Part shown: positions 4,666-58,667 of the stretch, piece after piece
Layout: each line of letters opens with the position of its first letter
Numbering within the stretch: the stretch's first letter is position 1
Source: a virus
Taxonomy: Duplodnaviria; Caudoviricetes
IMG/VR virus record: IMGVR_UViG_3300020434_000055
Strand: one strand, 5' to 3'
Length of the DNA stretch: 64,000 bases
Program-made: the position numbers and the translations under genes
The notes under the pieces: generated by a model
Seen by the model: the letters and a program-made list of their open reading frames with translations, nothing else
What the model was told of the DNA's origin: nothing
Database searches by the model: none

Positions 4666-4735
4666 AGGAATCCACATAAATAATTCAAGTTACTAATAAT
4701 TAATATAGTAAATATAATAGAAGACAGAATAAAGT

Positions 4736-4948
4736 ATGGCAACAGGCAAAATCAAATGGTTTAATTCCGCTAAAGGTTTCGGATTCATCACACCAGATCA
4801 AGAAGGCAAAGACGTGTTTTTACACGTTTCTGCTTTAAAAGCCTCTAATTTAAGTGACGTTCATGACGGCGACTTAATGGAGTATGAGCTGGTAGAATTC
4901 CGAGGACGACAAGTAGCTGGAAATCTTAAACGCATTGTAGTAGAATAA
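4736..4948 (+). CDS. cspA: Cold-shock protein (CSD RNA chaperone)
   Basis: MATGKIKWFNSAKGFGFI (RNP1) and DVFLHVSAL (RNP2). Confidence 0.95.
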   Translation: MATGKIKWFNSAKGFGFITPDQEGKDVFLHVSALKASNLSDVHDGDLMEYELVEFRGRQVAGNLKRIVVE

Positions 4949-4993
4949 TCATCCCAACATAAAACAGCATATCAAACTGTACCATCGATGTCT

Positions 4994-5022
4994 TTGACAT
5001 ATCAATAAAAAGATGTTATAAA
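4994..5022 (+). promoter_or_regulatory. Sigma70-type promoter of tmRNA gene
   Basis: TTGACA(4994)-17 bp-TATAAA(5017) with TG extended -10. Confidence 0.85.
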
Positions 5023-5028
5023 TATTAC

Positions 5029-5360
5029 TGTAGACGTTGAAGTTTGGGTAATAAATTTCAGGGACGTCGGGGCAGTACCGACCACCTCCACCAAATTCTT
5101 CCGCGTGAAACATTTTAAGGTTTAAGTGTTTAACGGGGGTGAACTAGGATCGACCGGAATGTAAAGACAAATGGAGTCTATCTAGTAGGCACGAAGTAAC
5201 GTCCAATTTATAAATGCATTAGCATTTAAACCTGAAGTGACAGTTCCAGTTAGCATTTTTGCTGACAGAGAACTGGTTGCAGTTTAATACTGCCATTTCG
5301 GAGAAAGGTTAATCTCGGCAACAGAACATAGACCAGCATAGGGGCTTCGGCCCCTATGTT
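5029..5360 (+). ncRNA. ssrA: Circularly permuted (two-piece, alphaproteobacterial-type) tmRNA
   Basis: Acceptor piece ends with T-arm GTCGG-GGCAGTA-CCGAC plus CACCTCC-A-CCA(5093). Intervening segment 5094-5134. Coding piece starts GGGGGTGAACTAGGATCGAC(5135). The 7-bp acceptor stem has a G3.U70 Ala determinant. Resume context ATAAAT-GCA at 5216, tag ORF ends TAA 5287. Outer ends are approximate. Confidence 0.93.
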
Positions 5361-5362
5361 TA
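5336..5362 (+). terminator. Intrinsic terminator after tmRNA
   Basis: GCATAGGGGC-TTCG-GCCCCTATGT-TTATT, a C(UUCG)G tetraloop hairpin. Confidence 0.9.
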
Positions 5363-5427
5363 TTAAACATTCTTATAACTTCTCTTAACATTTAATTTCC
5401 GCTTTAACTTCTCTAAATAATATTCTT

Positions 5428-5688
5428 ATGTTGTATAGTAGAAGAAGAAAAAAGTTAATGAGCAAATTAAAAAAAAATGCTCCAAAAGTTCCAGATCTTA
5501 CTTGCCCAAGTATAGATAGTGCTATCGAACGACTTAAGAAAATATATGAAAAAAATAAACCAATTTCTGATTACCAATGGAAACTTATAGATAAAAGATT
5601 AGAAGTTCTTAGAGAACAAAATGAACTTCTTCGTGAAAGTGGCAAATATTGGTACGAATCCTGCAAAGAACACCTCAAAAAGTCATAA
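5428..5688 (+). CDS. Hypothetical phage protein (coiled coil)
   Basis: Open frame with VPDLTCPSID...LEVLREQNELLRESGKYWY; start codon uncertain. Confidence 0.6.
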   Translation: MLYSRRRKKLMSKLKKNAPKVPDLTCPSIDSAIERLKKIYEKNKPISDYQWKLIDKRLEVLREQNELLRESGKYWYESCKEHLKKS

Positions 5689-5763
5689 AAATCAACACTT
5701 TTTAACTATTGATTTATGTTTCAAAATCTGCTATTATAGTAGTATATAAATATAGTTAATATA

Positions 5764-6516
5764 ATGAAGAAACAAACCCGAGAACAACGGAAGACATCTG
5801 CATCTAAAAGAATAGTTCTTAAAAACCTAAAAAGATGGGCCAATTATTCCATCGCAGTAATAATATTAATAGCAATTTCTTTTTCATATGGAACATTCTT
5901 TCCTAACAAAGTTGTTTCAAACAAACTTTCGTCAACAATGTTTGAAAGCATAAAAAAACATTTTGCTAAAATCAATATTAAACTAGACAAAATAACTATG
6001 CAAAATAAAAAAGATATGGAAGTATCTTTATATTTGGATATTCACCAACCAGAATTTATATATAATGATGCTGATAGCTTCGTTGATGCAGTACGTCAAT
6101 GTGTAGATTATCTTAATTATACAACAGAACTTGAAAAAAGAATTCCTTCATCTATTATAATAGCAATGGCTGGAGTTGAATCAGGTTGGGGAACTTCTAG
6201 ATTTGCAATAGAAGGTAATGCATTATTTGGAGTACGAACTTGGGATCCAAACACACCACAAATGAAACCAAAAAATTTAGACAATATAGATTGGGGTGTT
6301 AAAAAATACAAGCATCAATGCGAAAGTATTCGTGATATGATAGAAATTATTAATAGACATCCTGCTTATAAAGCCTTTAGAGATGAAAGGGCAAAACAAT
6401 TAAAAAATGGTAAATGGGATTACAAAAAATTAATAGCAGGATTAAATGCATGGAGTGAAAATAAAGATTACGACCATCTAATATATAGTACTATATTAGA
6501 TAGAAACCTTCCATAG
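5764..6516 (+). CDS. Membrane-anchored GH73/Bax-like glucosaminidase (peptidoglycan hydrolase)
   Basis: N-terminal TM helix; IIIAMAGVESGWGTSRFAIEGNALFGVRTW catalytic motif. Confidence 0.85.
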   Translation: MKKQTREQRKTSASKRIVLKNLKRWANYSIAVIILIAISFSYGTFFPNKVVSNKLSSTMFESIKKHFAKINIKLDKITMQNKKDMEVSLYLDIHQPEFIYNDADSFVDAVRQCVDYLNYTTELEKRIPSSIIIAMAGVESGWGTSRFAIEGNALFGVRTWDPNTPQMKPKNLDNIDWGVKKYKHQCESIRDMIEIINRHPAYKAFRDERAKQLKNGKWDYKKLIAGLNAWSENKDYDHLIYSTILDRNLP

Positions 6517-12000: not shown

Positions 12001-12063
12001 TTGTACGTGATGCTATGATAGGTCTCGTACACATAACTTGCTTAACAAAGGAGGACGATTATG
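12001..12063 (+). promoter_or_regulatory. ROSE-like RNA thermometer in hsp20 5'UTR
   Basis: CTTGCTT-AACA-AAGGAG: the UUGCU motif pairs with SD AGGA leaving a bulged G. Upstream hairpin GTACG...CGTAC (12003-12030). Confidence 0.7.
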
Positions 12064-12507
12064 ACAAATAAAGCCCTATCAATTTTTAATCAACTAAGAC
12101 CCGTTACAATTGGATTTGATAACGTATTCGATCATTTTGAAAGAATGATGGAAGGCGATAACTTTTTCAATGGTGCTGGTGTTAATTACCCACCTTACAA
12201 TATTGTGAAAACAGGTGAAAACACTCACGATATTGAAGTTGCTCTTGCTGGATTCAGTAAGAAAGATATTGATGTAGAGTATAAAGACAATATGCTTACA
12301 ATCAAATCTATCAAAGAATCCAATACTGGCAATCAAAAGGATGGAGTTGTGCATAGAGGAATATCACAAAGATATTTTTCTAAATCTTTTACAATTGCGG
12401 ATGACGTAGAAATAAAAGGTGCAGAACTTAAAGATGGTCTTTTGACAGTTTCTTTGGAAAGAATAATTCCGGAAAGTAAAAAGGCTAAAAAAATAGACAT
12501 TAAGTAA
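12061..12507 (+). CDS. ibpA: Small heat-shock protein Hsp20/IbpA
   Basis: YPPYNIVK, IEVALAGFSKKDI, HRGISQRYFSKSFTIADD, AELKDGLLTVSLERIIPE. Confidence 0.96.
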   Translation: MTNKALSIFNQLRPVTIGFDNVFDHFERMMEGDNFFNGAGVNYPPYNIVKTGENTHDIEVALAGFSKKDIDVEYKDNMLTIKSIKESNTGNQKDGVVHRGISQRYFSKSFTIADDVEIKGAELKDGLLTVSLERIIPESKKAKKIDIK

Positions 12508-12565: not shown

Positions 12566-12871
12566 ATGAGCACAGAAATAGAAGTTAAAATAGACGAAAA
12601 AATAAAACAAGTAATTAAAGAACCTGAAAATTACAAGGTTATCTTTTTGAACGATAACGTTACCCCAATGGAATTTGTAATAGATATTTTAATCAAAATA
12701 TTTAAACACACCGCAGAAACGGCTCGTGATCTTACTCTGAAAATCCATAAAGAAGGCTCTATAATTGTTGGACTTTATACATACGAAATAGCAGAACAAA
12801 AAGGTATGGAGGCAACTAACGAAAGTAGGAGTTTAGGATATCCACTTCAGGTTAAGATTGAAAAAGAGTGA
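12566..12871 (+). CDS. clpS: ClpS N-degron adaptor
   Basis: YKVIFLNDNVTPMEFVIDIL...LTLKIHKEGSIIVGLYTYEIAEQK...GYPLQVKIE. Confidence 0.93.
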   Translation: MSTEIEVKIDEKIKQVIKEPENYKVIFLNDNVTPMEFVIDILIKIFKHTAETARDLTLKIHKEGSIIVGLYTYEIAEQKGMEATNESRSLGYPLQVKIEKE

Positions 12872-13491
12872 GCAAATTAAAAGAATTAACGTGGGAACAC
12901 CATAAAAACGCAGAGCGACATGAATTCGCCAAACTTCTAATGAGTGGCAAAATGCCAGAGAAGTTATATGCTACATATCTTTATAATCAACACCCTTGCT
13001 ATGTTATAGTTGAAGCAGTTGGAATGGCATATGGTTTAATGGATGGGGGCTTAAGACGAGCACCTGCAATATGGGACGACTTTAAAGAATTATGGCCAAA
13101 CGTTCCAGATGACGATACTAAAGATTATGAAAAACCATTTATAGCACCTTGCGTAAAAGAATTCCTTGATCATATTCAAAAAATAAAAAGTGATAGAAAA
13201 AAAGTAATGGCCCACATTTATGTTCGTCATATGGCAGATTTAAGTGGAGGTCAAATGATTAGAAAACGTATACCTGGTAAAGGACGTTTATATGATTTTC
13301 CTAAACCAATTGACGAAATGAAAGCTGATGTAAGAAAAAATTTAAGTGATGATATGGCAGATGAGGCAATAATAGCTTTTGGCTTTGCCACTAAATTATT
13401 CAAAGAATTAAGTACACAAATTTATAATGAAGATAATAGAAATACTACAAATGATCCTTTTAAAGGAACAGTTATAGAAGGAAAAGATTAA
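12868..13491 (+). CDS. ho1: Heme oxygenase
   Basis: LKELTWEHHKNAE (proximal His helix); AHIYVRHMADLSGGQMIRK distal helix. Confidence 0.9.
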   Translation: MSKLKELTWEHHKNAERHEFAKLLMSGKMPEKLYATYLYNQHPCYVIVEAVGMAYGLMDGGLRRAPAIWDDFKELWPNVPDDDTKDYEKPFIAPCVKEFLDHIQKIKSDRKKVMAHIYVRHMADLSGGQMIRKRIPGKGRLYDFPKPIDEMKADVRKNLSDDMADEAIIAFGFATKLFKELSTQIYNEDNRNTTNDPFKGTVIEGKD

Positions 13492-13697
13492 TGACATCTT
13501 TATCTAAAATAAGACATAGACAAAAGTTTGAAGAAGCACCCAAAAATGATTTTACTGGAAATATGATAAGGGTTAATATTCTTAAAGAAGAAATAGCACA
13601 TCTTAAAACATTACTTCAACCAACGGACACTGGACATATTCATACTGCAATATCTGTCTTGGAAGACCGAATAAAAGAATTAGAAAATGAAAAATGA
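13491..13697 (+). CDS. Small hypothetical protein within the HO-FDBR cassette
   Basis: Coupled at both ends; LQPTDTGHIHTAISVLEDRIKEL. Confidence 0.65.
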   Translation: MTSLSKIRHRQKFEEAPKNDFTGNMIRVNILKEEIAHLKTLLQPTDTGHIHTAISVLEDRIKELENEK

Positions 13698-14394
13698 GTC
13701 TTTTATTTGGAATAAACTTATAGAGTGTCAAAATCAAATACTAAAAGAGTTTAATACTAGAGGTACAGAAATAACTGAACCTGGTATGGATCATTTTAAC
13801 CAACCTGAAAATGGTTGGATGAATAGAGTATGGCAAACTGAAAATTGTAGACGTTGTCATATAGATGTAGTAGATGCTAGAGATACAAAAGCTCTTTGGA
13901 TGATGCACGTATGTGTTTTTCCTAATCTTGATAATGATGGTCCTATATATGGCTTTGATGTTATTGCAGGTAAAAATAAAATGACTGGAGCCTTCCATGA
14001 TTTTTCAGCATCTTCTGGAGGAGAAAAACATCCTTTAGTAGACTGGTATAAAGATGCAGTAGCAGATTATATACCTAGCAAAAAAAGAGTATTACCTGAA
14101 TGGGCAAAAAATATATTTTCAAGTAGTATGATTGCCGCGGGTAATGTTAGAACAGATGAAGAAGCAACTGCAATAGTTGATTTAGCAATTAGCAATCTTA
14201 AAACTTATTTTGACAGTATAGGACAATACTCAGGTAAAGCACTTAAAGAAAATACAATAAAAGCACAAAATTACTATTGTAATAATCAAACACAAAATCC
14301 ACATACACCCAGAGTAATGTTGTCTTTAGGACTAAACGAAAAAGACGTTAAAAAGTTTTGTACAGACATATTATTTCCTAAAATAAGCCAATAA
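13687..14394 (+). CDS. pcyX: Ferredoxin-dependent bilin reductase, PcyX/PcyA-like
   Basis: CHIDVVDAR, WMMHVCVFP, PIYGFDVIAG, AFHDFS and YYCNNQTQNPHTPRVM match FDBR family motifs; next to heme oxygenase. Confidence 0.82.
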   Translation: MKNESFIWNKLIECQNQILKEFNTRGTEITEPGMDHFNQPENGWMNRVWQTENCRRCHIDVVDARDTKALWMMHVCVFPNLDNDGPIYGFDVIAGKNKMTGAFHDFSASSGGEKHPLVDWYKDAVADYIPSKKRVLPEWAKNIFSSSMIAAGNVRTDEEATAIVDLAISNLKTYFDSIGQYSGKALKENTIKAQNYYCNNQTQNPHTPRVMLSLGLNEKDVKKFCTDILFPKISQ

Positions 14395-16601: not shown

Positions 16602-17651
16602 ATGAAAAACGTTGGAATAATTGGCGTTGGTAAAATTGGTAGAACGATTGCCGCCTTTTTAAATAAAAAACCCGAAATATTTAAAGTTCATTTAGCAGAT
16701 ATAAATCCATGGGATAAAGATGAATCTATTATAAAAATAGATGCGTCTGATATAAACGAGTGTAAAAGATTTATAGGTGGCAAAGATATAATAATTACAT
16801 CTACTACTCATGACGTTAATATTAATATTGCAAAATCGTGTGCTGAATTAGGAGTAGCATATTTTGATTTAACAGAAGATACAGAAGTTTCAGAGTATAT
16901 TAAAAATTTAGATACAAAAACATTTATGATGCCACAATGTGGATTGGCGCCTGGGGCAGTTAATATTATTGCCGCAAATTTAATCAGTCAATTTGAAGAA
17001 CCACATAAAGTTAAAATGAGAGTTGGAGCATTACCTAAATATCCTACCAATGCAATGTCTTATTATCTTACTTGGTCAACTGATGGTTTACTTAATGAAT
17101 ATGTAAATTATTGTGATGTCATTTCCCATTACGATCATATTAAAGCACATCCACTAGATGGTATAGAATCAATTTATATAGATGGAAATAGATATGAAGC
17201 ATTTAACACATCAGGAGGTAGTGCTTCTATGTGTGAAACATATAAAGACAAAGTTAGAACATTATCATATAAAACTATTAGGTATCCAGGACATTGTGAT
17301 AAAATGAAATTTTTATTAGAAGATTTAAATTTAAAACATAACAAACAAAAATTTATAGAATTATTTGATCAAGAAGTTCCTTATACAACTGCAGATGTTG
17401 TAGTAATGCTTGTATCTGTAATTGGTAAAAAAGATGGCAAATTACAAGAAGTTACATATTCAAATAAAATATATGGCGACACAGATTTTAGTGCCATCCA
17501 AAGAGCAACTGCTTCTGGTGTATGTGCTGTCGTTTTAGCATATGCTACAGGAAAACTTACAGGTACAGGATATATCAAACAGGAGAACATACCACATAAA
17601 GATTTTATAACTAATTTATACGGAGAAATATACAATGGCAGAGCTACTTAA
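16602..17651 (+). CDS. Saccharopine dehydrogenase family / lysine 6-dehydrogenase-like
   Basis: GIIGVGKIG Rossmann motif, QCGLAPG, TWSTDGLLNEY, EAFNTSGG, YKTIRYPGH. Confidence 0.88.
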   Translation: MKNVGIIGVGKIGRTIAAFLNKKPEIFKVHLADINPWDKDESIIKIDASDINECKRFIGGKDIIITSTTHDVNINIAKSCAELGVAYFDLTEDTEVSEYIKNLDTKTFMMPQCGLAPGAVNIIAANLISQFEEPHKVKMRVGALPKYPTNAMSYYLTWSTDGLLNEYVNYCDVISHYDHIKAHPLDGIESIYIDGNRYEAFNTSGGSASMCETYKDKVRTLSYKTIRYPGHCDKMKFLLEDLNLKHNKQKFIELFDQEVPYTTADVVVMLVSVIGKKDGKLQEVTYSNKIYGDTDFSAIQRATASGVCAVVLAYATGKLTGTGYIKQENIPHKDFITNLYGEIYNGRAT

Positions 17652-19071
17652 AGAAGGTTATAATTTATTAGTTGAAAAATCTACTGACGCCCAAAAAGGT
17701 TGGCTAAAAGTTCCAGCACCTAAACGTGGAGAATTAATTAGAATATTTGGTAACAAATTAAGAGAACACTTACAAGAACTAGGTAAAGGTGTTACTATGG
17801 AAAGTAAAAAAATTTTAGTTGAAGGAGTTGGAGAAGTCCAAGAAGTAATTGATATGTGTGATTTTGCAGTAGGGTTATCAAGACAACTATATGGATTAAC
17901 AATGCCTTCTGAAAGGCCTGATCACAGATTACAAGAAATGTGGCATCCATTAGGTGTAGTAGGTGTTATTACGGCTTTTAATTTTCCAGTAGCGCCATGG
18001 GGTTGGAATTTTTGTTTAGCAATAGTGTGTGGCGATAGTGTTGTATGGAAACCATCTCCTAAAACAATGAAAATATCATACAGATGTAAAGAATTATTTG
18101 ATGATGCAGTTAAAGATTTTAAAAGCAAATATGTTGAAAGTTTAGGAATAGATGTAAAAAATTTATTATTAATATTAGAAGGAGATAAAGAACAAGCAGA
18201 ATGGATGGCTGATGATCCTAATATAAAATTATTAAGTGCAACAGGATCATGTGAAATGGGTAAATCATTAGCACCTAAGGTTTCTGCAAGAATGGGTAAA
18301 GGTTTATATGAACTAGGTGGCAATAATGCAATGATAGTAACTAATAATGCAAATTTTGAATTAGCCGTAAGAGCAATTATTTTTAGTGCTATTGGTACAA
18401 CCGGTCAAAGATGTACTTCTTTAAGAAGACTTTTTGTACAAAAAAATAGTTACGATTCTATGAAAGGTATGCTACATAGAGCATATTCAGGAATTGACCC
18501 TGGTCATCCATTGGACAACGGTGTTTTATTAGGCCCATTAATTGATGAAAAAGCATTTAAAAAAATGCAATCTGTTTTACATAAATGTCGACAAAAAGGA
18601 TACATGGTTTATGGTGGAGATCCACATGAAGAATGTAATAAATTAAATCCGGATCATCCGTATTACGTTTACCCAGCTATTGTTCATGCTGATTTTCATT
18701 CTGAAATGGTTAAAGAAGAAACATTTGCTCCTATCCTTTATATGTTAAAATATGATAAACTAGAAAATGCAATTAAAATGCAAAATGATGTACCTCAAGG
18801 ATTAAGTTCTTGCATTTTTACAGAAAATTTAAGAGAAGCTGAAACATTTATATCTTCAGTTGGTTCTGATTGCGGAATTGTAAATGTTAATATAGGACCA
18901 TCAGGTGCAGAAATAGGTGGAGCATTTGGTGGAGAAAAAGATACAGGTGGTGGCAGAGAATCTGGATCTGATGCTTGGAAATCTTATATGAGAAGAACTA
19001 CAGTTACAATTAATTATGGTAGAAAATTACCTTTAGCACAAGGTATAACTTTTGCATCTGATAAAAAATAA
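17635..19071 (+). CDS. ALDH7 family aldehyde dehydrogenase (alpha-aminoadipate semialdehyde / P6C dehydrogenase)
   Basis: EGVGEVQEVIDMCDFAVGLSRQLYG, ITAFNFPVA, ELGGNNA, catalytic GQRCT, GGRESGSDAWKSYMRR. Confidence 0.92.
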   Translation: MAELLKEGYNLLVEKSTDAQKGWLKVPAPKRGELIRIFGNKLREHLQELGKGVTMESKKILVEGVGEVQEVIDMCDFAVGLSRQLYGLTMPSERPDHRLQEMWHPLGVVGVITAFNFPVAPWGWNFCLAIVCGDSVVWKPSPKTMKISYRCKELFDDAVKDFKSKYVESLGIDVKNLLLILEGDKEQAEWMADDPNIKLLSATGSCEMGKSLAPKVSARMGKGLYELGGNNAMIVTNNANFELAVRAIIFSAIGTTGQRCTSLRRLFVQKNSYDSMKGMLHRAYSGIDPGHPLDNGVLLGPLIDEKAFKKMQSVLHKCRQKGYMVYGGDPHEECNKLNPDHPYYVYPAIVHADFHSEMVKEETFAPILYMLKYDKLENAIKMQNDVPQGLSSCIFTENLREAETFISSVGSDCGIVNVNIGPSGAEIGGAFGGEKDTGGGRESGSDAWKSYMRRTTVTINYGRKLPLAQGITFASDKK

Positions 19072-47523: not shown

Positions 47524-47922
47524 ATGTTCGAACGCCAGAACAATCTTAAAATCTATAAAGGCAAAATAACACCTATCCATGACAGAGTTTTAGTTTCTGA
47601 CATGGATTTCGGGGATCAAAAAACCAAAGGTGGACTTATTATTGCAAGTGACGACGGACATACTCGAGGTATCAAACCTAGATGGTGTAAAGTAGTTTCT
47701 AAAGGTCACAAAAATAAAGACACATACAAAGAAGGAGACTGGATCTTAGTCGAACACGGACGATGGTCAAGGGGTCTCCATTTTGAAAGTAAAAACGGAA
47801 AAGTCAAAGTTCTTCGAATTGTTGAAGCCAAAGCAGTAATGATGACTGGCAATTATAAACCAAAAGATTGGTACCAAGCCAGATTAAAATATAGCCCTGC
47901 CGGCGAACTCCTAGAAAAATAA
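47524..47922 (+). CDS. groES: Co-chaperonin GroES-like (gp31 analogue)
   Basis: PIHDRVLV, QKTKGGLIIASDDG mobile loop, CKVVSKG, EGDWILVEHG. Confidence 0.8.
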   Translation: MFERQNNLKIYKGKITPIHDRVLVSDMDFGDQKTKGGLIIASDDGHTRGIKPRWCKVVSKGHKNKDTYKEGDWILVEHGRWSRGLHFESKNGKVKVLRIVEAKAVMMTGNYKPKDWYQARLKYSPAGELLEK

Positions 47923-49047: not shown

Positions 49048-50397
49048 ATGTGCGGAATAGTTGGAATATATAATGTTCCAGAGGCTTCTAAAATTGCAGT
49101 ACTCGGAATTCATGCTTTGCAACACCGAGGTCAAGAAGGAGCTGGTATTATTTCATACGATAATGACTTTCATTTTCAAAATTCTTACGGTTTAGTTGAT
49201 CATATTTTTAGTAAAAACAGAATTATAGAAAATCTACCAGGTAATATGGCAATAGGCCACGTTAGATACAGTACTACTGGTGGTACAGGTAAAAATAATG
49301 TTCAACCTTTATTTTATAATTTAGACTTTGGTGGTTTTGCTATTTCTCATAACGGAGATTTTACTGATTCAGTATATTGGCGAGACAAATTAAGAAAAGA
49401 TGGTGCAATATTTCAAACATCTACCGATACAGAAATTATTCCACATTTATTGGCCCGTACAAAAGGAACAGATCCTATTAATCGTTTACTTAAGGTATTA
49501 AATCAAGTAAATGGTGCATTTAGTATAGTGGCTTTGCTTAATAACAAGTTAATTGTTGCACGAGATACTCATGGCTTTCGTCCATTAGTTATAGGTCGTT
49601 ATAAACAAGGTTATGCAGTAGCATCTGAGAGCTGTTCTCTTGATTTAATTGGTGCAACAAATATTAAAGACGTTGACCCCGGAGAAGTACTTGTATTTGA
49701 AGATGAAAAAAAGAAAATTTATCATTTAGACAATAAAATTACAAAAAATTTTTGTATATTTGAACACGTATATTTTTCTAGACCTGATTCTATTATAGAT
49801 GACCAATTAGTATATGACGTTCGTAAAAGAATAGGTGAACAATTAGCAAAAGAAACTTATATTGATTCTGATATGGTTGTTCCTGTACCTGATTCAGGTT
49901 TAATATCTGCACTTGGATATGCTAAACAATCAAAAATTCCTTTTGAATTTGGACTTACGCGAAGTCACTACGTAGGAAGAACATTTATTCAACCCACTCA
50001 AACAATACGAGACTTAGGTGTAAAATTAAAACATAGTGCTATGCGATTATTTGAAGATAAAACAGTTACCGTTATTGATGATTCTATTGTTCGAGGAACT
50101 ACAGCAAAAAAAATTATAAAAATGATAAGAAAAGCAGGTGCTAAAAAAATTCATATGCGTATTGCATCTCCACCGGTTACTGGTCCATGTTGGTATGGTA
50201 TAGATACACCAAATAGACAAGAACTTATAGCTGGAACCAGTAGTGAAAAAGAAATTAAAGAATTTATAACGGCTGATTCACTAAAATACATATCAGTAGA
50301 AGGATTACATAAAGCAGTAAAAGGTAAAGGTTACTGTGATGCTTGTTTTAGTGGCAAATATCCTATTAATAAAAGGACTGAATTACATGAACGTTAA
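49048..50397 (+). CDS. purF: Amidophosphoribosyltransferase
   Basis: MCGIVG Ntn Cys, LQHRGQEGAGI, GHVRYST, CIFEHVYFSRPDS, PVPDSG, VIDDSIVRGTT, YCDACFSGKYP. Confidence 0.97.
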   Translation: MCGIVGIYNVPEASKIAVLGIHALQHRGQEGAGIISYDNDFHFQNSYGLVDHIFSKNRIIENLPGNMAIGHVRYSTTGGTGKNNVQPLFYNLDFGGFAISHNGDFTDSVYWRDKLRKDGAIFQTSTDTEIIPHLLARTKGTDPINRLLKVLNQVNGAFSIVALLNNKLIVARDTHGFRPLVIGRYKQGYAVASESCSLDLIGATNIKDVDPGEVLVFEDEKKKIYHLDNKITKNFCIFEHVYFSRPDSIIDDQLVYDVRKRIGEQLAKETYIDSDMVVPVPDSGLISALGYAKQSKIPFEFGLTRSHYVGRTFIQPTQTIRDLGVKLKHSAMRLFEDKTVTVIDDSIVRGTTAKKIIKMIRKAGAKKIHMRIASPPVTGPCWYGIDTPNRQELIAGTSSEKEIKEFITADSLKYISVEGLHKAVKGKGYCDACFSGKYPINKRTELHER

Positions 50398-51013
50398 ATT
50401 AATTGATAAAATGGGTACTGACCTAACAGTAGTAAATGCCGCTAGGGTTTCTTATGCAAAAACTAAAGAACAATTTGAAGATAAAGACGAAAAACTAATT
50501 GCATTTTTGGCTAAACATAATCATTGGTCACCGTTTGGACACGCATCACTACAATTTAGAATAAAAGCACCTGTGTTTGTTGCAAGACAACTTGTTAAGC
50601 ATCAAGTTGGACTAATATGGAATGAAGTTAGTAGACGTTATGTAGATTATCCACCTGAATTGTTTAATCCAGAGTCATGGAGAGGTCGTCCTATTAATTC
50701 TAAACAAGGTTCTGCTGGTGAAGTTAAACTTGATAGAACATTACAACATCTTTATTCAACTGCTATGGAACAATGTAAAATTTTATACCATGCTTTGATC
50801 GGAAAAAACATCGCACCCGAACAAGCACGAATGGTATTACCTCAATCAATGATGACTGAATGGTATTGGTCAGGAAGTTTATATGCATTTGCTAGAGTAT
50901 GCAATTTAAGATGTAAACCTGACGTACAAAAAGAAACTAGAGAGGTTTGTGAGCAAATTTCTACAGAATGCGGTAAGTACTTTCCTATTAGTTGGAAATA
51001 TTTGAGAAATTAA
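50387..51013 (+). CDS. thyX: Flavin-dependent thymidylate synthase
   Basis: VVNAARVSY, HNHWSPF, ARQLVKHQVGLIWNEVSRRY, EQARMVLPQ, HVQ-type PDVQKETR. Confidence 0.95.
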   Translation: MNVKLIDKMGTDLTVVNAARVSYAKTKEQFEDKDEKLIAFLAKHNHWSPFGHASLQFRIKAPVFVARQLVKHQVGLIWNEVSRRYVDYPPELFNPESWRGRPINSKQGSAGEVKLDRTLQHLYSTAMEQCKILYHALIGKNIAPEQARMVLPQSMMTEWYWSGSLYAFARVCNLRCKPDVQKETREVCEQISTECGKYFPISWKYLRN

Positions 51014-55036: not shown

Positions 55037-55065
55037 TTGACTTTTTGGTAAAGAGTTGTTATATT
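55037..55065 (+). promoter_or_regulatory. Sigma70-type promoter of dnaJ-def-clpA operon
   Basis: TTGACT-17 bp-TATATT with TG extension. Confidence 0.75.
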
Positions 55066-55071
55066 ATTATT

Positions 55072-55923
55072 ATGGCAGACTATTATGATATATTAGGGGT
55101 TAAAAAAGGCGCTTCCCAACAAGATTTAAAAAAAGCATATAAAAAACAAGCGATGAGATATCATCCAGACAAGGGTGGAGACTCTAATAAATTTCAAAAA
55201 ATAAACGAAGCATACGATACACTTAAAGACCCTCAAAAGAAAGCCATGTATGACCAATTTGGTGCTACTGGTAATCAAGGACCTTATTCAAGAACATATT
55301 CAACTGAAGAGTTTGAATTTCCTAATGACATAGGAGATATTTTTAATCAATTCTTTGGTGGATCAAGATCACCGTTTACTCAAAGAAGACAAAGACAAAG
55401 AAATAAAGACATAGCAATTCAAACTCAAATAGATTTAGAAGATGTAATGAATGGTAAATCATTAATTGCAACATATACACTAACAAATGGTAAGCAACAG
55501 AGTGTAAACATTGATTTACCTCCGGGAGTAGAAACAAATACCACGATGAAATTTACAGGACTAGGAGATAATTTCATTCCAAGTATTTCTAGAGGTGATT
55601 TAATGGTAAGAATTAAAGTACGATCTCATTCAAGATGGCATAGAGATGGTGCAAATTTACATTGCGTAGAAAAAGTAAGTGTGTTTGATTTATTATTAGG
55701 AACTAAAAAGGAAATAACAACTGTAGATGGTAAAAAATTATCTATTACCATCCCTAAAGGATGTCAACCAGGTACAGTATTAAGTATTAGTGAACAAGGA
55801 CTACCAAGATTGCATGGCAGAGGCAAAGGTAACATCTATATGACAGTTCAAGCCGATATACCTAACATATCTGATCCAGAAATGTTAAAGCTTCTTCAAA
55901 GGATAAAATATGGAACTAATTAA
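55072..55923 (+). CDS. dnaJ: DnaJ-class II co-chaperone (CbpA-like, no Zn finger)
   Basis: DYYDILGV...YHPDKGG J-domain; G/F region; C-terminal domain with GDLMVRI and GLPRL..RGKGN. Confidence 0.93.
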   Translation: MADYYDILGVKKGASQQDLKKAYKKQAMRYHPDKGGDSNKFQKINEAYDTLKDPQKKAMYDQFGATGNQGPYSRTYSTEEFEFPNDIGDIFNQFFGGSRSPFTQRRQRQRNKDIAIQTQIDLEDVMNGKSLIATYTLTNGKQQSVNIDLPPGVETNTTMKFTGLGDNFIPSISRGDLMVRIKVRSHSRWHRDGANLHCVEKVSVFDLLLGTKKEITTVDGKKLSITIPKGCQPGTVLSISEQGLPRLHGRGKGNIYMTVQADIPNISDPEMLKLLQRIKYGTN

Positions 55924-56428
55924 ACACCCAAATGAATGGTTAGAGAAAAAAATAAAACCTTTCGACTGGGAAAATTTAGATTCAGAAAAAATTGAACAAG
56001 AAATGGTCTCTATTATGGAGGATAATAAAGGTATAGGTCTGGCGGCAAATCAAGTTGGGTTAGATGCAAGAGTTGTAACAATATTGCCAAAAAATATAAA
56101 AGGAATTACTAAATCTTTTGCAATTATTGATCCTACAATAGAACAAATAAGTCTTAATAAAATTGAAGATGTTGAAGGATGTCTTAGTTTTCCAAAATTA
56201 TGGTTAAAAGTTAGAAGACCAGACAAGGTTACTGTAAAATTTCTTGACAGTAAACAAAAAGAGTGTATAATGGACTTTAGTGGTTATGATGCAAGATGTT
56301 TTCTTCACGAATATGATCATCTGGAAGGAATAACGTTCGTGAGTCCTTTACGAGTTAGCAAATTAAGATTAGATATGGCAATAAAAAGACAACAAAAAAT
56401 AATAAAAGAGGAACAACAAAATGGTTGA
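55910..56428 (+). CDS. def: Peptide deformylase
   Basis: GIGLAANQVG, EGCLSFP, HEYDHLEG. Confidence 0.96.
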   Translation: MELIKHPNEWLEKKIKPFDWENLDSEKIEQEMVSIMEDNKGIGLAANQVGLDARVVTILPKNIKGITKSFAIIDPTIEQISLNKIEDVEGCLSFPKLWLKVRRPDKVTVKFLDSKQKECIMDFSGYDARCFLHEYDHLEGITFVSPLRVSKLRLDMAIKRQQKIIKEEQQNG

Positions 56429-58667
56429 GCCTAGCCAAGAACTCCAATTAGTTTTTGATAAAGCAGTTATAGATGCTAAAAAATTAAAGCATGAATATGT
56501 AACTGTTGAACACTTATTATTTGCAATGCTATGCACTGATAAATTTTCAAATATGATTAAAGGATTCGGTGCAGATGTTGACGATTTAAAAACAGAAGTA
56601 GAAAATTATCTTAAAACTAAATTAAAAACTATAACACTTGAAAATATTTCAAAATATAAACCAAAAAAGACAACAAGTGTAGAAAGAATTCTAAATAGAG
56701 CATTTACCCAAGTATTATTCAGTGGTAGAAGCCATATAGACATCTCAGACGTGTTTCTTAGCATGATGAGTGAAAAGAAAAGCTGGGCTTATTACTTTAT
56801 AATGAAGACCGAAATAAGCAAAGACAAGTTTCAAGACTATCTACACGCCGAAATGGAATCATTATATGAAGATGAAGTTGATCAATCCGCGGCAAAAAGA
56901 GCATTAGGTCTTTATACTACAAATTTAAACAATGAAGTTAAAAAAGAAAGAATAGATCCAGTTATAGGAAGAGTAGAAGAATTAAATTCTATAGCTTTAT
57001 CCTTAGGTAGAAGAACTAAAAATAATGTAATCCTAGTAGGAGATCCAGGTGTAGGAAAAACTGCTATTGCAGAAGGATTAGCATTTAATATTGAAAAGAA
57101 TACTTGTCCTGATTTTTTAAAAGAATATAAAGTGTATAATTTAGACATTGGTGGAATGTTAGCTGGTTCTAAATATAGAGGAGATTTTGAAGAAAGATTT
57201 AAACTTGTATTATCTGCTTTAAAAAAGAAAGGCAAAACAATTTGTTTTATAGATGAAGCACATAATATAAGTGGTGCAGGAGCAGGCGGAACTACAAATA
57301 GTAATGATTTAGCTAATTTATTAAAACCTGTATTAACTAAAGGTGATCTTAAAGTTGTAGCATCAACTACTTGGGAAGATTATAGAAAATATTTTGAAAA
57401 AGACAGAGCTCTAATGAGAAGATTTCAAAGAATTGTAATTGATGAACCAGATAAAGATACTACAGTTAAAATATTACACGGACTTAGAAAATACTATGAA
57501 AATTTTCATAATATTGCAATTACAGATCAAGCAATTAAAGAAGCAGTTAAAACTAGTGTCAAATATCAAACTGATAAAAAATTACCTGACAAAGCAATTG
57601 ATTTAATAGACTTGGCGTGTAGTAGATTTAATCTTAAAGACCCTACTGCTGAAAAAGTAATAGGTCAAGAAGAAATACAATATGAAGTAGCAAAAGCTGT
57701 GAAAATGCCTGTTGAAAACATTCAACAAAAAGAGTCTTCAGCACTTGCTAATTTAGATAAGAATATGAAGAGTGGTGTATTTGGACAAGACAAAGCAATA
57801 GAGTCTGTTATTGATAAAATTATGGTGGCACACGCAGGATTAAAAAGAGAAAACAAACCAATAGGATCATTTGTGTTCATGGGCCCAACAGGTTGTGGTA
57901 AAACAGAAACAGCAAAACAACTTGCAAATCATTTAGGTGTTAAATTAGTCAGATTTGATATGTCAGAGTATCAAGAAAAACACGCAGTATCAAAACTAAT
58001 TGGATCTCCTCCAGGATATGTTGGATTTGAAGAAAATACAGGATTGCTTATAACAAAATTACAAGAACATCCTAATTGCGTATTGCTATTAGATGAAATA
58101 GAAAAAGCACACCCTGATGTTAGTCAAATATTACTTCAAATAATGGATGAAGGAACTGTTATGGGTAATAATGGTAAAGAAGCAGACTGTAAAAATGTTA
58201 CATTAATTTTAACTACTAATTTAGGTGCAGATCAATTAGATAAAAACGTAATGGGATTCACTGACTCCTCATCTACTAGTGAATATGACGATAAAGAAAT
58301 GAAAAAGTTCTTTCCACCAGAATTTAGAAACAGATTAGACGGAACTATTGTATTCCAAAAATTATCAAAAGAAACTCTAATAAAAATTGTTGGTAAGTTT
58401 ATGCTAGAGCTTAGATTGATGTTAAAAGACAAAGATACAGTACTAGAATTAACTGATGAAGCTATTGACTACCTAGTAGACAAAGGATATGATGATAAAA
58501 TGGGTGCTAGACCTATGCAAAGACTAATTGACAATGACATTAAAAGACCTCTATCCAAAGAATTGCTATTTGGTAAGTTAAAAAATGGTGGTAAAGCTAA
58601 AATTGACTCAAAAGATAAGGGTATTACTATCATCTACGAAGAAGCAGTGAAACTAATCAAAAGTTAA
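56421..58667 (+). CDS. clpA: ClpA AAA+ unfoldase
   Basis: Clp N-domain (HEYVTVEHLLFAM), two NBDs (GDPGVGKT, GPTGCGKT), no ClpB coiled coil, KNVMGF ClpP-docking loop, MGARPMQR. Confidence 0.95.
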   Translation: MVEPSQELQLVFDKAVIDAKKLKHEYVTVEHLLFAMLCTDKFSNMIKGFGADVDDLKTEVENYLKTKLKTITLENISKYKPKKTTSVERILNRAFTQVLFSGRSHIDISDVFLSMMSEKKSWAYYFIMKTEISKDKFQDYLHAEMESLYEDEVDQSAAKRALGLYTTNLNNEVKKERIDPVIGRVEELNSIALSLGRRTKNNVILVGDPGVGKTAIAEGLAFNIEKNTCPDFLKEYKVYNLDIGGMLAGSKYRGDFEERFKLVLSALKKKGKTICFIDEAHNISGAGAGGTTNSNDLANLLKPVLTKGDLKVVASTTWEDYRKYFEKDRALMRRFQRIVIDEPDKDTTVKILHGLRKYYENFHNIAITDQAIKEAVKTSVKYQTDKKLPDKAIDLIDLACSRFNLKDPTAEKVIGQEEIQYEVAKAVKMPVENIQQKESSALANLDKNMKSGVFGQDKAIESVIDKIMVAHAGLKRENKPIGSFVFMGPTGCGKTETAKQLANHLGVKLVRFDMSEYQEKHAVSKLIGSPPGYVGFEENTGLLITKLQEHPNCVLLLDEIEKAHPDVSQILLQIMDEGTVMGNNGKEADCKNVTLILTTNLGADQLDKNVMGFTDSSSTSEYDDKEMKKFFPPEFRNRLDGTIVFQKLSKETLIKIVGKFMLELRLMLKDKDTVLELTDEAIDYLVDKGYDDKMGARPMQRLIDNDIKRPLSKELLFGKLKNGGKAKIDSKDKGITIIYEEAVKLIKS

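Follow-up and report, generated by a model that had tools for sequence, protein, structure and literature searches.

Two-piece tmRNAs encoded by phages have already been published (PMC9004378, PMC7162821), among them those of pelagimyophages and of the OM43 phage Melnitz (Buchholz et al. 2022, PMC9004378); in the available parts of these two accounts, the tag sequence is not analysed. In a phage-borne tmRNA, it is the tag alone that tells the destination of the rescued products. The last residue of a tag is almost always hydrophobic (PMC4131195), and ALAA is a conserved determinant for ClpX and ClpA, to which the AFA tag of Mycoplasma, read by Lon, is an exception (PMC3985003). The canonical tag is typical but not structurally required, Mycoplasma and Carsonella being accepted exceptions (PMC3985003, PMC4131195). 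The locus considered here lies in a stretch of 64,000 nucleotides from the IMG/VR virus record IMGVR_UViG_3300020434_000055 (Duplodnaviria; Caudoviricetes), hereafter referred to as the window, and all features of the window described below are on the plus strand.

The Rfam model RF04321 detected a permuted tmRNA at 5031-5287 (74 bits, E 2.5e-12, threshold 47, full model 1-213), and the alpha_tmRNA model RF01849 matched at 5043-5171 (81 bits, threshold 50, model positions 69-184 only). Both matches score above the gathering thresholds, and the claim of the first-pass annotation that the phage encodes a tmRNA is borne out. At the level of sequence, the region 5031-5336 is confirmed as an alpha-type, circularly permuted (two-piece) tmRNA gene; in the Rfam alignment, the acceptor piece comes first and is followed by a spacer and the coding piece, with P2 helices joining the two pieces.

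The acceptor piece (5031-5093), as delimited by the Rfam alignment, comprises the 5' strands of P2, the T arm (stem 5066-5070/5078-5082, loop GGCAGUA), the 3' acceptor strand (5083-5089), the discriminator A5090 and an encoded CCA (5091-5093). The coding piece (5135-5336) contains the 5' acceptor strand (5135-5141), the D-loop-like sequence AACUAGGAUCGA, the 3' strands of P2, the PK1 region, the tag frame and a pseudoknot. An intervening spacer of 41 nt (5094-5134) separates the encoded CCA from the 5' acceptor strand, and its removal is expected upon processing into two pieces; it is unrelated, both in sequence and in length, to the spacer of the sister clade described below, and it harbours the sole polymorphism that is common among the relatives, G5103A. 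The acceptor stem consists of seven pairs, including G5137:U5087, which corresponds to the alanine identity pair G3:U70, and does not vary in any of the 19 aligned sequences. In all 19, the T stem is paired as well, with compensatory changes. A pairing search placed the three P2 helices at 5031-5035/5176-5180, 5042-5046/5168-5172 and 5055-5059/5156-5160; they are paired in 12-14 of 14 sequences, with two to five pair types each and compensatory changes. For PK1, the 4-bp hairpin of the Rfam model has non-standard pairs in the window, and an exhaustive stack search found no convincing covarying helix in 5176-5215. Downstream of the tag, an H-type pseudoknot is present at 5301-5334 (S1, GAGA 5301-5304/UCUC 5313-5316; S2, GGUU 5307-5310/GACC 5331-5334). 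This post-tag pseudoknot with the GGCAACAGAA motif retains S1 and S2 in an altered form in the window, and its conserved loop GCAACAGAA (5318-5326) is also part of the RF01849 consensus. In a helix search over 19 tmRNAs, S2 was found to covary freely around the invariant GCAACAGAA (GGCCC:GGGCC, GGCAAC:GUUGCC, GUGGAGU:ACUCCAC and others).

The gene appears to be equipped with transcription signals of its own. A promoter-like site (4994-5022), read from the sequence, consists of TTGACA (4994-4999), a 17-nt spacer and TATAAA (5017-5022), and the -35 element TTGACA and an A/T-rich -10 element are kept across the window clade and the sister clade; the site is missing from the consensus scan because the rule of the scan demands a T as the last position of the -10 element. 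A terminator-like hairpin (5337-5364), also read from the sequence, has the form CAUAGGGGC-uucg-GCCCCUAUG and is followed by UUUAUU; it is not listed by the program's terminator scan, and in it the relatives L067 and L123 carry A-U in place of G-C, a compensatory change. No glutamine riboswitch of the Melnitz kind was found in 4700-5800, where Rfam (E up to 1) gave nothing beyond the two tmRNA models and one cspA match below threshold. The latter is a match of the cspA thermoregulator model to 4700-4846, over the start of the phage cspA gene (23.8 bits, threshold 78).

An IMG/VR motif scan yielded 71 loci. The same tag occurs in 11 related marine contigs, including L013, L014, L027, L031, L045, L059, L067 and L123-L125; the last three are metagenome contigs with an identical tag, three further copies found in a metagenome scan with a 24-nt anchor, and as all tags are identical they add no variation for a dN/dS test; the contigs behind L123 and L125 are 164 kb and 91 kb long. 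The seven loci from IMG/VR (L013 to L067) carry a tmRNA that is 95-99% identical to that of the window. In this window clade, positions 5031-5336 are 97-100% identical to the window, whereas the flanking genes are only 78-93% identical. The island of identity is bounded by the promoter and the terminator hairpin, and identity is about 70% just beyond the hairpin. The tag DNA itself is 100% identical in seven of eight relatives with flanking genes of about 80% identity, and likewise in L031 and L059; only two substitutions were found among the 11 relatives, both of them in L067 and both at synonymous third positions. Peptide-level selection is therefore hardly testable within the window clade, and the near-identity could equally result if the cassette had swept through it recently.

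The stretch is present in 20 public runs, six of which are RNA libraries from six studies. When four RNA runs were compared, three, from three studies, had contigs limited to the gene (5031-5181 and 5206-5356 in one, 5144-5342 and 5148-5366 in the others), and the fourth had one contig running in from cspA. One of the RNA-library contigs starts at 5031, and one crosses the spacer. It should be noted that this RNA evidence consists of assembled contigs, which attest to presence in RNA libraries and are not proof of transcription, ends or levels. Gene-bounded contigs in three studies are nevertheless a reasonable hint that a stable RNA is abundant, and the RNA-library contigs indicate that the tmRNA is probably expressed. 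In the X15 variant, 11 differences fall within the 176 nt upstream of the gene, and the common G5103A is the only one inside the tmRNA.

ARAGORN called no tmRNA in the window. The program also misses L045, L067, L122 and Phosso (L155), all of which are found by the Rfam models, so that its silence is no evidence against the window gene. Because the window clade, L122 and Phosso are missed by ARAGORN, on which the published surveys of phage tmRNAs relied, the counts given there are to be taken as lower bounds. The lack of an ARAGORN call, the partial coverage of RF01849 and the existence of phage genes that consist only of a tRNA-like domain (PMC4131195) could be taken to mean that the locus is a non-functional remnant or a decoy, either a fragment of a host ssrA gene or a domain that titrates SmpB, like the TLD-only gene of mycobacteriophage DS6A. 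This reading is extremely improbable and is largely refuted: the island of high identity spans the whole gene, including tag and pseudoknot, the promoter and the terminator are conserved, the latter with its compensatory change, and a scan of 185,579 species genomes for the exact 32-nt acceptor/T-arm sequence revealed it in no bacterial chromosome. The only species genome with a copy of this 32-mer is the MAG 'Rickettsiales bacterium MED657', where it lies on a 14.8-kb contig that carries a gene of the phage family. A host origin of this copy was therefore rejected, the contig being a phage contig inside the MAG.

The tag reading frame extends from 5216 to 5287, with the resume codon GCA at 5216-5218, 23 sense codons encoding ALAFKPEVTVPVSIFADRELVAV and the stop codon TAA at 5285-5287. 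The Rfam consensus for the resume site, UAAaU|GCa, aligns with 5211-5218 within ATAAAT|GCA (5210-5218), and the consensus stop aligns with 5285-5287. The alignment of the sister clade with the window holds until the resume codon, and ARAGORN places the resume codon at the homologous position in the sister clade, in L020 and in HTVC008M. The peptide starts with ALAF and ends with LVAV, and both the canonical ANDN-like start and the ALAA/VAA end are absent. The resume codon, the 23-codon frame and the departure from AND(N) and LAA had all been proposed in the first-pass annotation and are upheld; a canonical tag in another frame, which would have overturned the proposal, is not encoded here, as the other two frames at the tag are full of stops and yield no tag-like peptide. 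By a rough estimate, a 23-codon open frame arises by chance in about one in five cases in DNA of 32% GC. A frame of this length is thus not rare, and the case for the tag rests on position and homology.

Part of the homology is provided by the sister clade, which comprises about 20 loci of uncultured marine phages (L006, L008, L028, L032, L037, L040, L042, L051, L052, L073, L074, L082, L086, L087, L093, L098, L102, L118 and L122). Its members resemble the window in the promoter layout, in the UAAAU|GCA resume site and in the post-tag pseudoknot with GCAACAGAA, and most of them, with the exceptions of L008 and L074, carry the exact 32-nt T-arm/acceptor sequence. The sister tags follow the pattern AN[KT][KR]AL[GR]FADL[TV]V..ELRLAA and are 22-25 codons long (with the charged alanine, the tail is A-ANKKALGFADLTVGMSELRLAA); the same frame is called by ARAGORN. 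At least eight codons vary synonymously while the residue is invariant, and changes in length are in-frame steps of three codons; judged from these codon patterns, the sister-clade tags bear a clear coding signature. The sister tags and the window tag have the blocks AL(G/A)F, FAD, TV and EL in common. Unlike the window tag, however, the sister tags have kept the AN[KT][KR] start and the RLAA end, and ARAGORN finds their tmRNAs. Relative to them, the window tag has lost exactly 12 nt (four codons, ANKK) directly after UAAAU|GCA, and it ends in ELVAV where the sister tags end in ELRLAA, LAA having been replaced by VAV. Since the blocks are shared and exactly four codons have been lost, the window tag is best seen as a derived member of a phage-specific family of long tags, and not as a random frame. 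On these comparative grounds, the tail is shown to be a derived long tag of a marine phage tmRNA lineage, in which a strongly apolar C-terminus has been kept.

A more distant phage tmRNA, L020, has a tag of 29 codons that ends in SLAV. Within it, an LAA is followed by another seven codons that end in LAV, as if a stop codon had been lost. The loci L020 (839-1227) and L121 (G004:C1:2300-5329) represent a 125-kb phage contig with six tRNAs near the tmRNA and with DnaJ-ClpA. The window and L020 tags have a terminal element in common, the stop hairpin GCAGUUUAAU(C)ACUGC. In the window, the predicted stop-codon hairpin (5279-5293) is GCAGU-UUAAU-ACUGC, in which the UAA lies in the loop and the 5' arm is made up of the final two codons, GCA GUU. 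A second, longer hairpin is predicted within the frame at 5241-5275 (CAGUUC...GAACUG enclosing UUAGCA..UGCUGA) and covers codons 9-20 of the tag. The predicted minimum free energy fold of 5176-5336 has -47.4 kcal/mol, with a z value of -4.5 against shuffled sequences. RNA structure within the frame would explain why synonymous sites of the tag are frozen, and on these predicted folds RNA hairpins constrain part of the tag peptide, its final A-V included.

These structural features bear on an alternative in which the RNA serves ribosome rescue only and the degron drifts, the tag sequence being set mainly by RNA structure and history with little selection on the degron. The conservation of the tag DNA at synonymous sites, which points to constraint at the RNA level, the strong predicted fold, in which a hairpin covers codons 9-20 and a loop holds the stop codon, and the use of GCA GUU UAA as arm and loop of a hairpin that is shared with L020 are all in accordance with it, as is the free variation across the family in the length of the tag (22-29 codons) and in its middle part. 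However, in the sister clade the residues AN..ALGFADL and ELRLAA are invariant through synonymous changes, which speaks for selection at the peptide level in the family, and the window tag has kept its apolar end and is still in frame after the 12-nt deletion. In addition, a build-up of undegraded truncated proteins is generally harmful. Rescue with little selection on the degron is therefore considered improbable. Judged from sequence comparison, both the RNA and its tag are real and conserved.

All genes of the window are on one strand, with 31-36% GC. They encode ribonucleotide reductase, glutaredoxin, CspA, Hsp20, heme oxygenase, bilin reductase, 2OG oxygenases, DNA ligase, T4-like baseplate parts, a Cpn10-like protein, a clamp loader, ThyX (50336-51013), DnaJ, peptide deformylase and ClpA. 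Genes for chaperones and quality control are unusually numerous in the window, with CspA (4736-4948), Hsp20 (12061-12507), the Cpn10-like gene (47524-47922) and a proteostasis module in which DnaJ (55045-55923), peptide deformylase (Def, 55910-56428) and ClpA follow one another. The heme oxygenase (12868-13491) and the ferredoxin-dependent bilin reductase (13687-14394) form a hemO-FDBR cassette, in this case in a phage that also encodes an alpha-type tmRNA; such a cassette (PcyX-like) has been described in uncultured marine phages (PMC11480375). Adjoining genes for a saccharopine-dehydrogenase-like protein and an aldehyde dehydrogenase lie at 16602-19071, and a 173-aa ORF at 46596-47117 matches only a fragment of the NTPase domain of the DNA polymerase III alpha subunit.

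Relatives of 29-125 kb are rated 9-36% complete by CheckV, and on this basis the genomes would be roughly 250-400 kb in size. The module DnaJ-Def-ClpA is found in the same order in the Sinorhizobium jumbo phage Phosso, and Atu_ph07, PA5oct and the L020 phage likewise have DnaJ-ClpA. Together with the size estimates, this module points to a jumbo-type myophage of the Atu_ph07/Phosso/PA5oct kind and not to a pelagimyophage. A SAR11 host, which had been suggested in the first-pass annotation, fits the low GC content and the alpha-type RNA, but it finds no further support and was dropped.

The sole candidate host lineage that was seen is that of MED657. This 2-Mb MAG contains three tmRNA genes (L126, L127 and L128, the last identical with L122), two of which are different phage tmRNAs of the sister clade on separate contigs. 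The contigs of the sister type may be either mis-binned phage DNA or a hint of the host lineage. The MAG's own tmRNA, in a region of 30% GC, has the tag ANDNEMALAA. From relatives of MED657 (MAG G008), 20 bacterial tags were obtained, 16 by ARAGORN and four by a regular expression; like the MAG's own tag, they end in LAA, VAA or IAA and are short and canonical, with one odd exception. The long phage tags therefore differ from the tags of this lineage, and the short tags of the ANDNEMALAA type in the relatives of MED657 also speak against a descent of the window gene from a host ssrA fragment. A further tmRNA (L143, G030:C124), which belongs to an alphaproteobacterial genome and lies on a contig of 37% GC, is not called by ARAGORN; its candidate tag of 31 residues is rich in arginine and asparagine and ends in FAIAA.

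The phage ClpA that the first-pass annotation had reported is indeed encoded in the window, at 56421-58667, and is a candidate partner of the tag. The protein of 748 aa has the Pfam domains Clp_N, AAA, AAA_lid_9, AAA_2 and ClpB_D2-small, and aligns over its full length with residues 3-743 of E. coli ClpA (1ksf, E 1e-194). It has an N-domain and both ATPase modules, with both Walker motifs (GDPGVGKT and GPTGCGKT) and the pore loops KYR and GYVG, and it is devoid of the ClpB middle domain. At the ClpP-docking loop, MGF stands opposite the IGL of E. coli; being complete and having this motif, the phage ClpA probably works with a ClpP. As reportedly found by Flynn et al. 2001, ClpA reads residues 1-2 and 8-10 of the tag and ClpX residues 9-11, and SspB, which is said to read residues 1-4 and 7, hinders ClpA. 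If this residue map applies, a tail without an SspB-type block would be more open to ClpA.

It is therefore tempting to assume that tag and phage ClpA have co-evolved into a private degradation channel, in which the products escape host ClpXP/SspB and go to ClpA together with host ClpP. The intact ClpA with its docking loop would fit this assumption, and so would the tag itself, which starts with A-A (the charged alanine and the first codon) and has no adaptor-type NDN block; a precedent for the co-evolution of tag and protease exists in the Lon-specific tag of Mycoplasma (PMC3985003). Moreover, only two kinds of phage tmRNAs with AV-ended tags were found, those of the window clade (VAV) and of L020 (LAV), both from phages with DnaJ-ClpA, and HTVC008M, which has the tag ANFNEYALAA, has no ClpA in its complete genome. 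However, Phosso combines DnaJ-Def-ClpA in the same order with the canonical ANDN...ALAA tag ANDNVSTKVALAA. The generalization that ClpA goes with AV-ended tags was dropped for this reason; ClpA is rather a lineage trait that requires no unusual tag. The two AV ends may also not be independent, as the window and L020 have the stop-hairpin element in common, and the apparent absence of ClpA and DnaJ from contigs of the sister and window clades is uninformative, since these records are fragments of 9-24% (about 20% in the sister clade). Furthermore, no SmpB, ClpP, ClpS or SspB was found among about 50 ORFs scanned in the window, and the lack of ClpS, ClpP or SspB-like genes in this set does not favour a dedicated channel. 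The link of ClpA to the odd tag is thus possible but circumstantial, and a co-evolved channel is judged unlikely, though not negligibly so.

In the first-pass annotation, it had been proposed that the tag frees stalled ribosomes while sparing the products from host ClpXP/SspB or routing them to the phage ClpA. The premise that ends of the AAV/LVA type change degradation rates is found in the literature: in E. coli, AAV and ASV ends make GFP more stable than LAA and LVA ends do, and yet they still are degradation tags (PMC9097571). Part of the functional idea is supported by the intact ClpA with its docking loop, but to speak of sparing from ClpXP is too strong, because AAV ends slow degradation without abolishing it and LVAV is still an apolar C-terminus; and there is no specific indication of routing to the phage ClpA, given the canonical tag that accompanies the same module in Phosso.

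The preferred explanation, which is considered fairly probable, is that of a functional phage-encoded, two-piece alpha-type tmRNA that combines ribosome rescue with a weakened, ClpX-poor degron tail. One precursor would be transcribed from the gene's own sigma-70-like promoter and would be cut into the acceptor piece (5031-5093) and the coding piece (5135 to about 5336). The tmRNA would be charged with alanine by virtue of G3:U70 and would enter stalled ribosomes together with host SmpB, translation would resume at GCA 5216 and append the 24-residue tail A-ALAFKPEVTVPVSIFADRELVAV, and the ribosome would be released at UAA 5285. Ribosome rescue during infection would be the main selected function. 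The tail would most likely still be a C-terminal degron, weaker for recognition of the ClpX type and without an SspB-type adaptor site; the host probably has ClpXP. Degradation might then fall to AAA+ proteases that are less specific for the end, with the phage ClpA plus host ClpP, Lon or FtsH as candidates, and part of the odd sequence of the tail may be dictated by the in-frame RNA hairpins and not by the peptide.

A more far-reaching proposal pairs the LVAV tag with the phage ClpA as an orthogonal degron and unfoldase, and holds that the phage tmRNA outcompetes that of the host during infection. If this were true, the many truncated host proteins from cleaved host mRNAs would receive a tail that is poorly handled by host ClpXP/SspB, ClpA on host ClpP would unfold the tagged proteins so that amino acids are recycled for the phage, and host quality control would be neither saturated nor depended on. 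This proposal is regarded as speculative and rather doubtful.

In INPHARED, neither blastn of the tmRNA nor megablast of 20 kb yielded a phage match; blastn at E up to 10 gave a single match, a 36-nt T-arm segment of HTVC008M, which led to the tmRNA of that phage. HTVC008M and Melnitz resemble the window in having an alpha-type permuted tmRNA behind an early-type promoter in marine T4-like or large myophages, and the ssrA of HTVC008M is found by the same Rfam models. However, the HTVC008M tag is short and canonical, and the window phage has a jumbo-phage gene module. Phosso (PV764938; L155, 1544-2146) also has an alpha-type permuted tmRNA that is missed by ARAGORN, in addition to DnaJ-Def-ClpA in the same order, but it differs from the window in its canonical tag and in its spacer of about 370 nt versus 41 nt. 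The Mycoplasma tag is, like that of the window, long and has lost the ALAA end, and another AAA+ protease could read the window tag as well; in Mycoplasma, however, ClpXP, ClpAP and Tsp are absent and the specificity of Lon has been shown experimentally. Among the E. coli ssrA variants LAA, LVA, AAV and ASV (Andersen et al. 1998, in PMC9097571), AAV has a terminal valine after alanine as in the window; these engineered tags have 11 residues with an intact SspB site, and the VAV end is not among them.

Within one family of phage RNAs, nature thus offers a series that ranges from canonical short tags via long LAA-ended tags to long tags ending in LAV or VAV, and the lineage with the VAV tag is strongly conserved, apparently expressed in the sea, and accompanied by a phage proteostasis set. 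Taken together, these properties make the destination of the tagged products accessible to simple reporter-degradation assays. Among the known phage tmRNAs, the long tag of the window clade that ends in VAV is a new variant.
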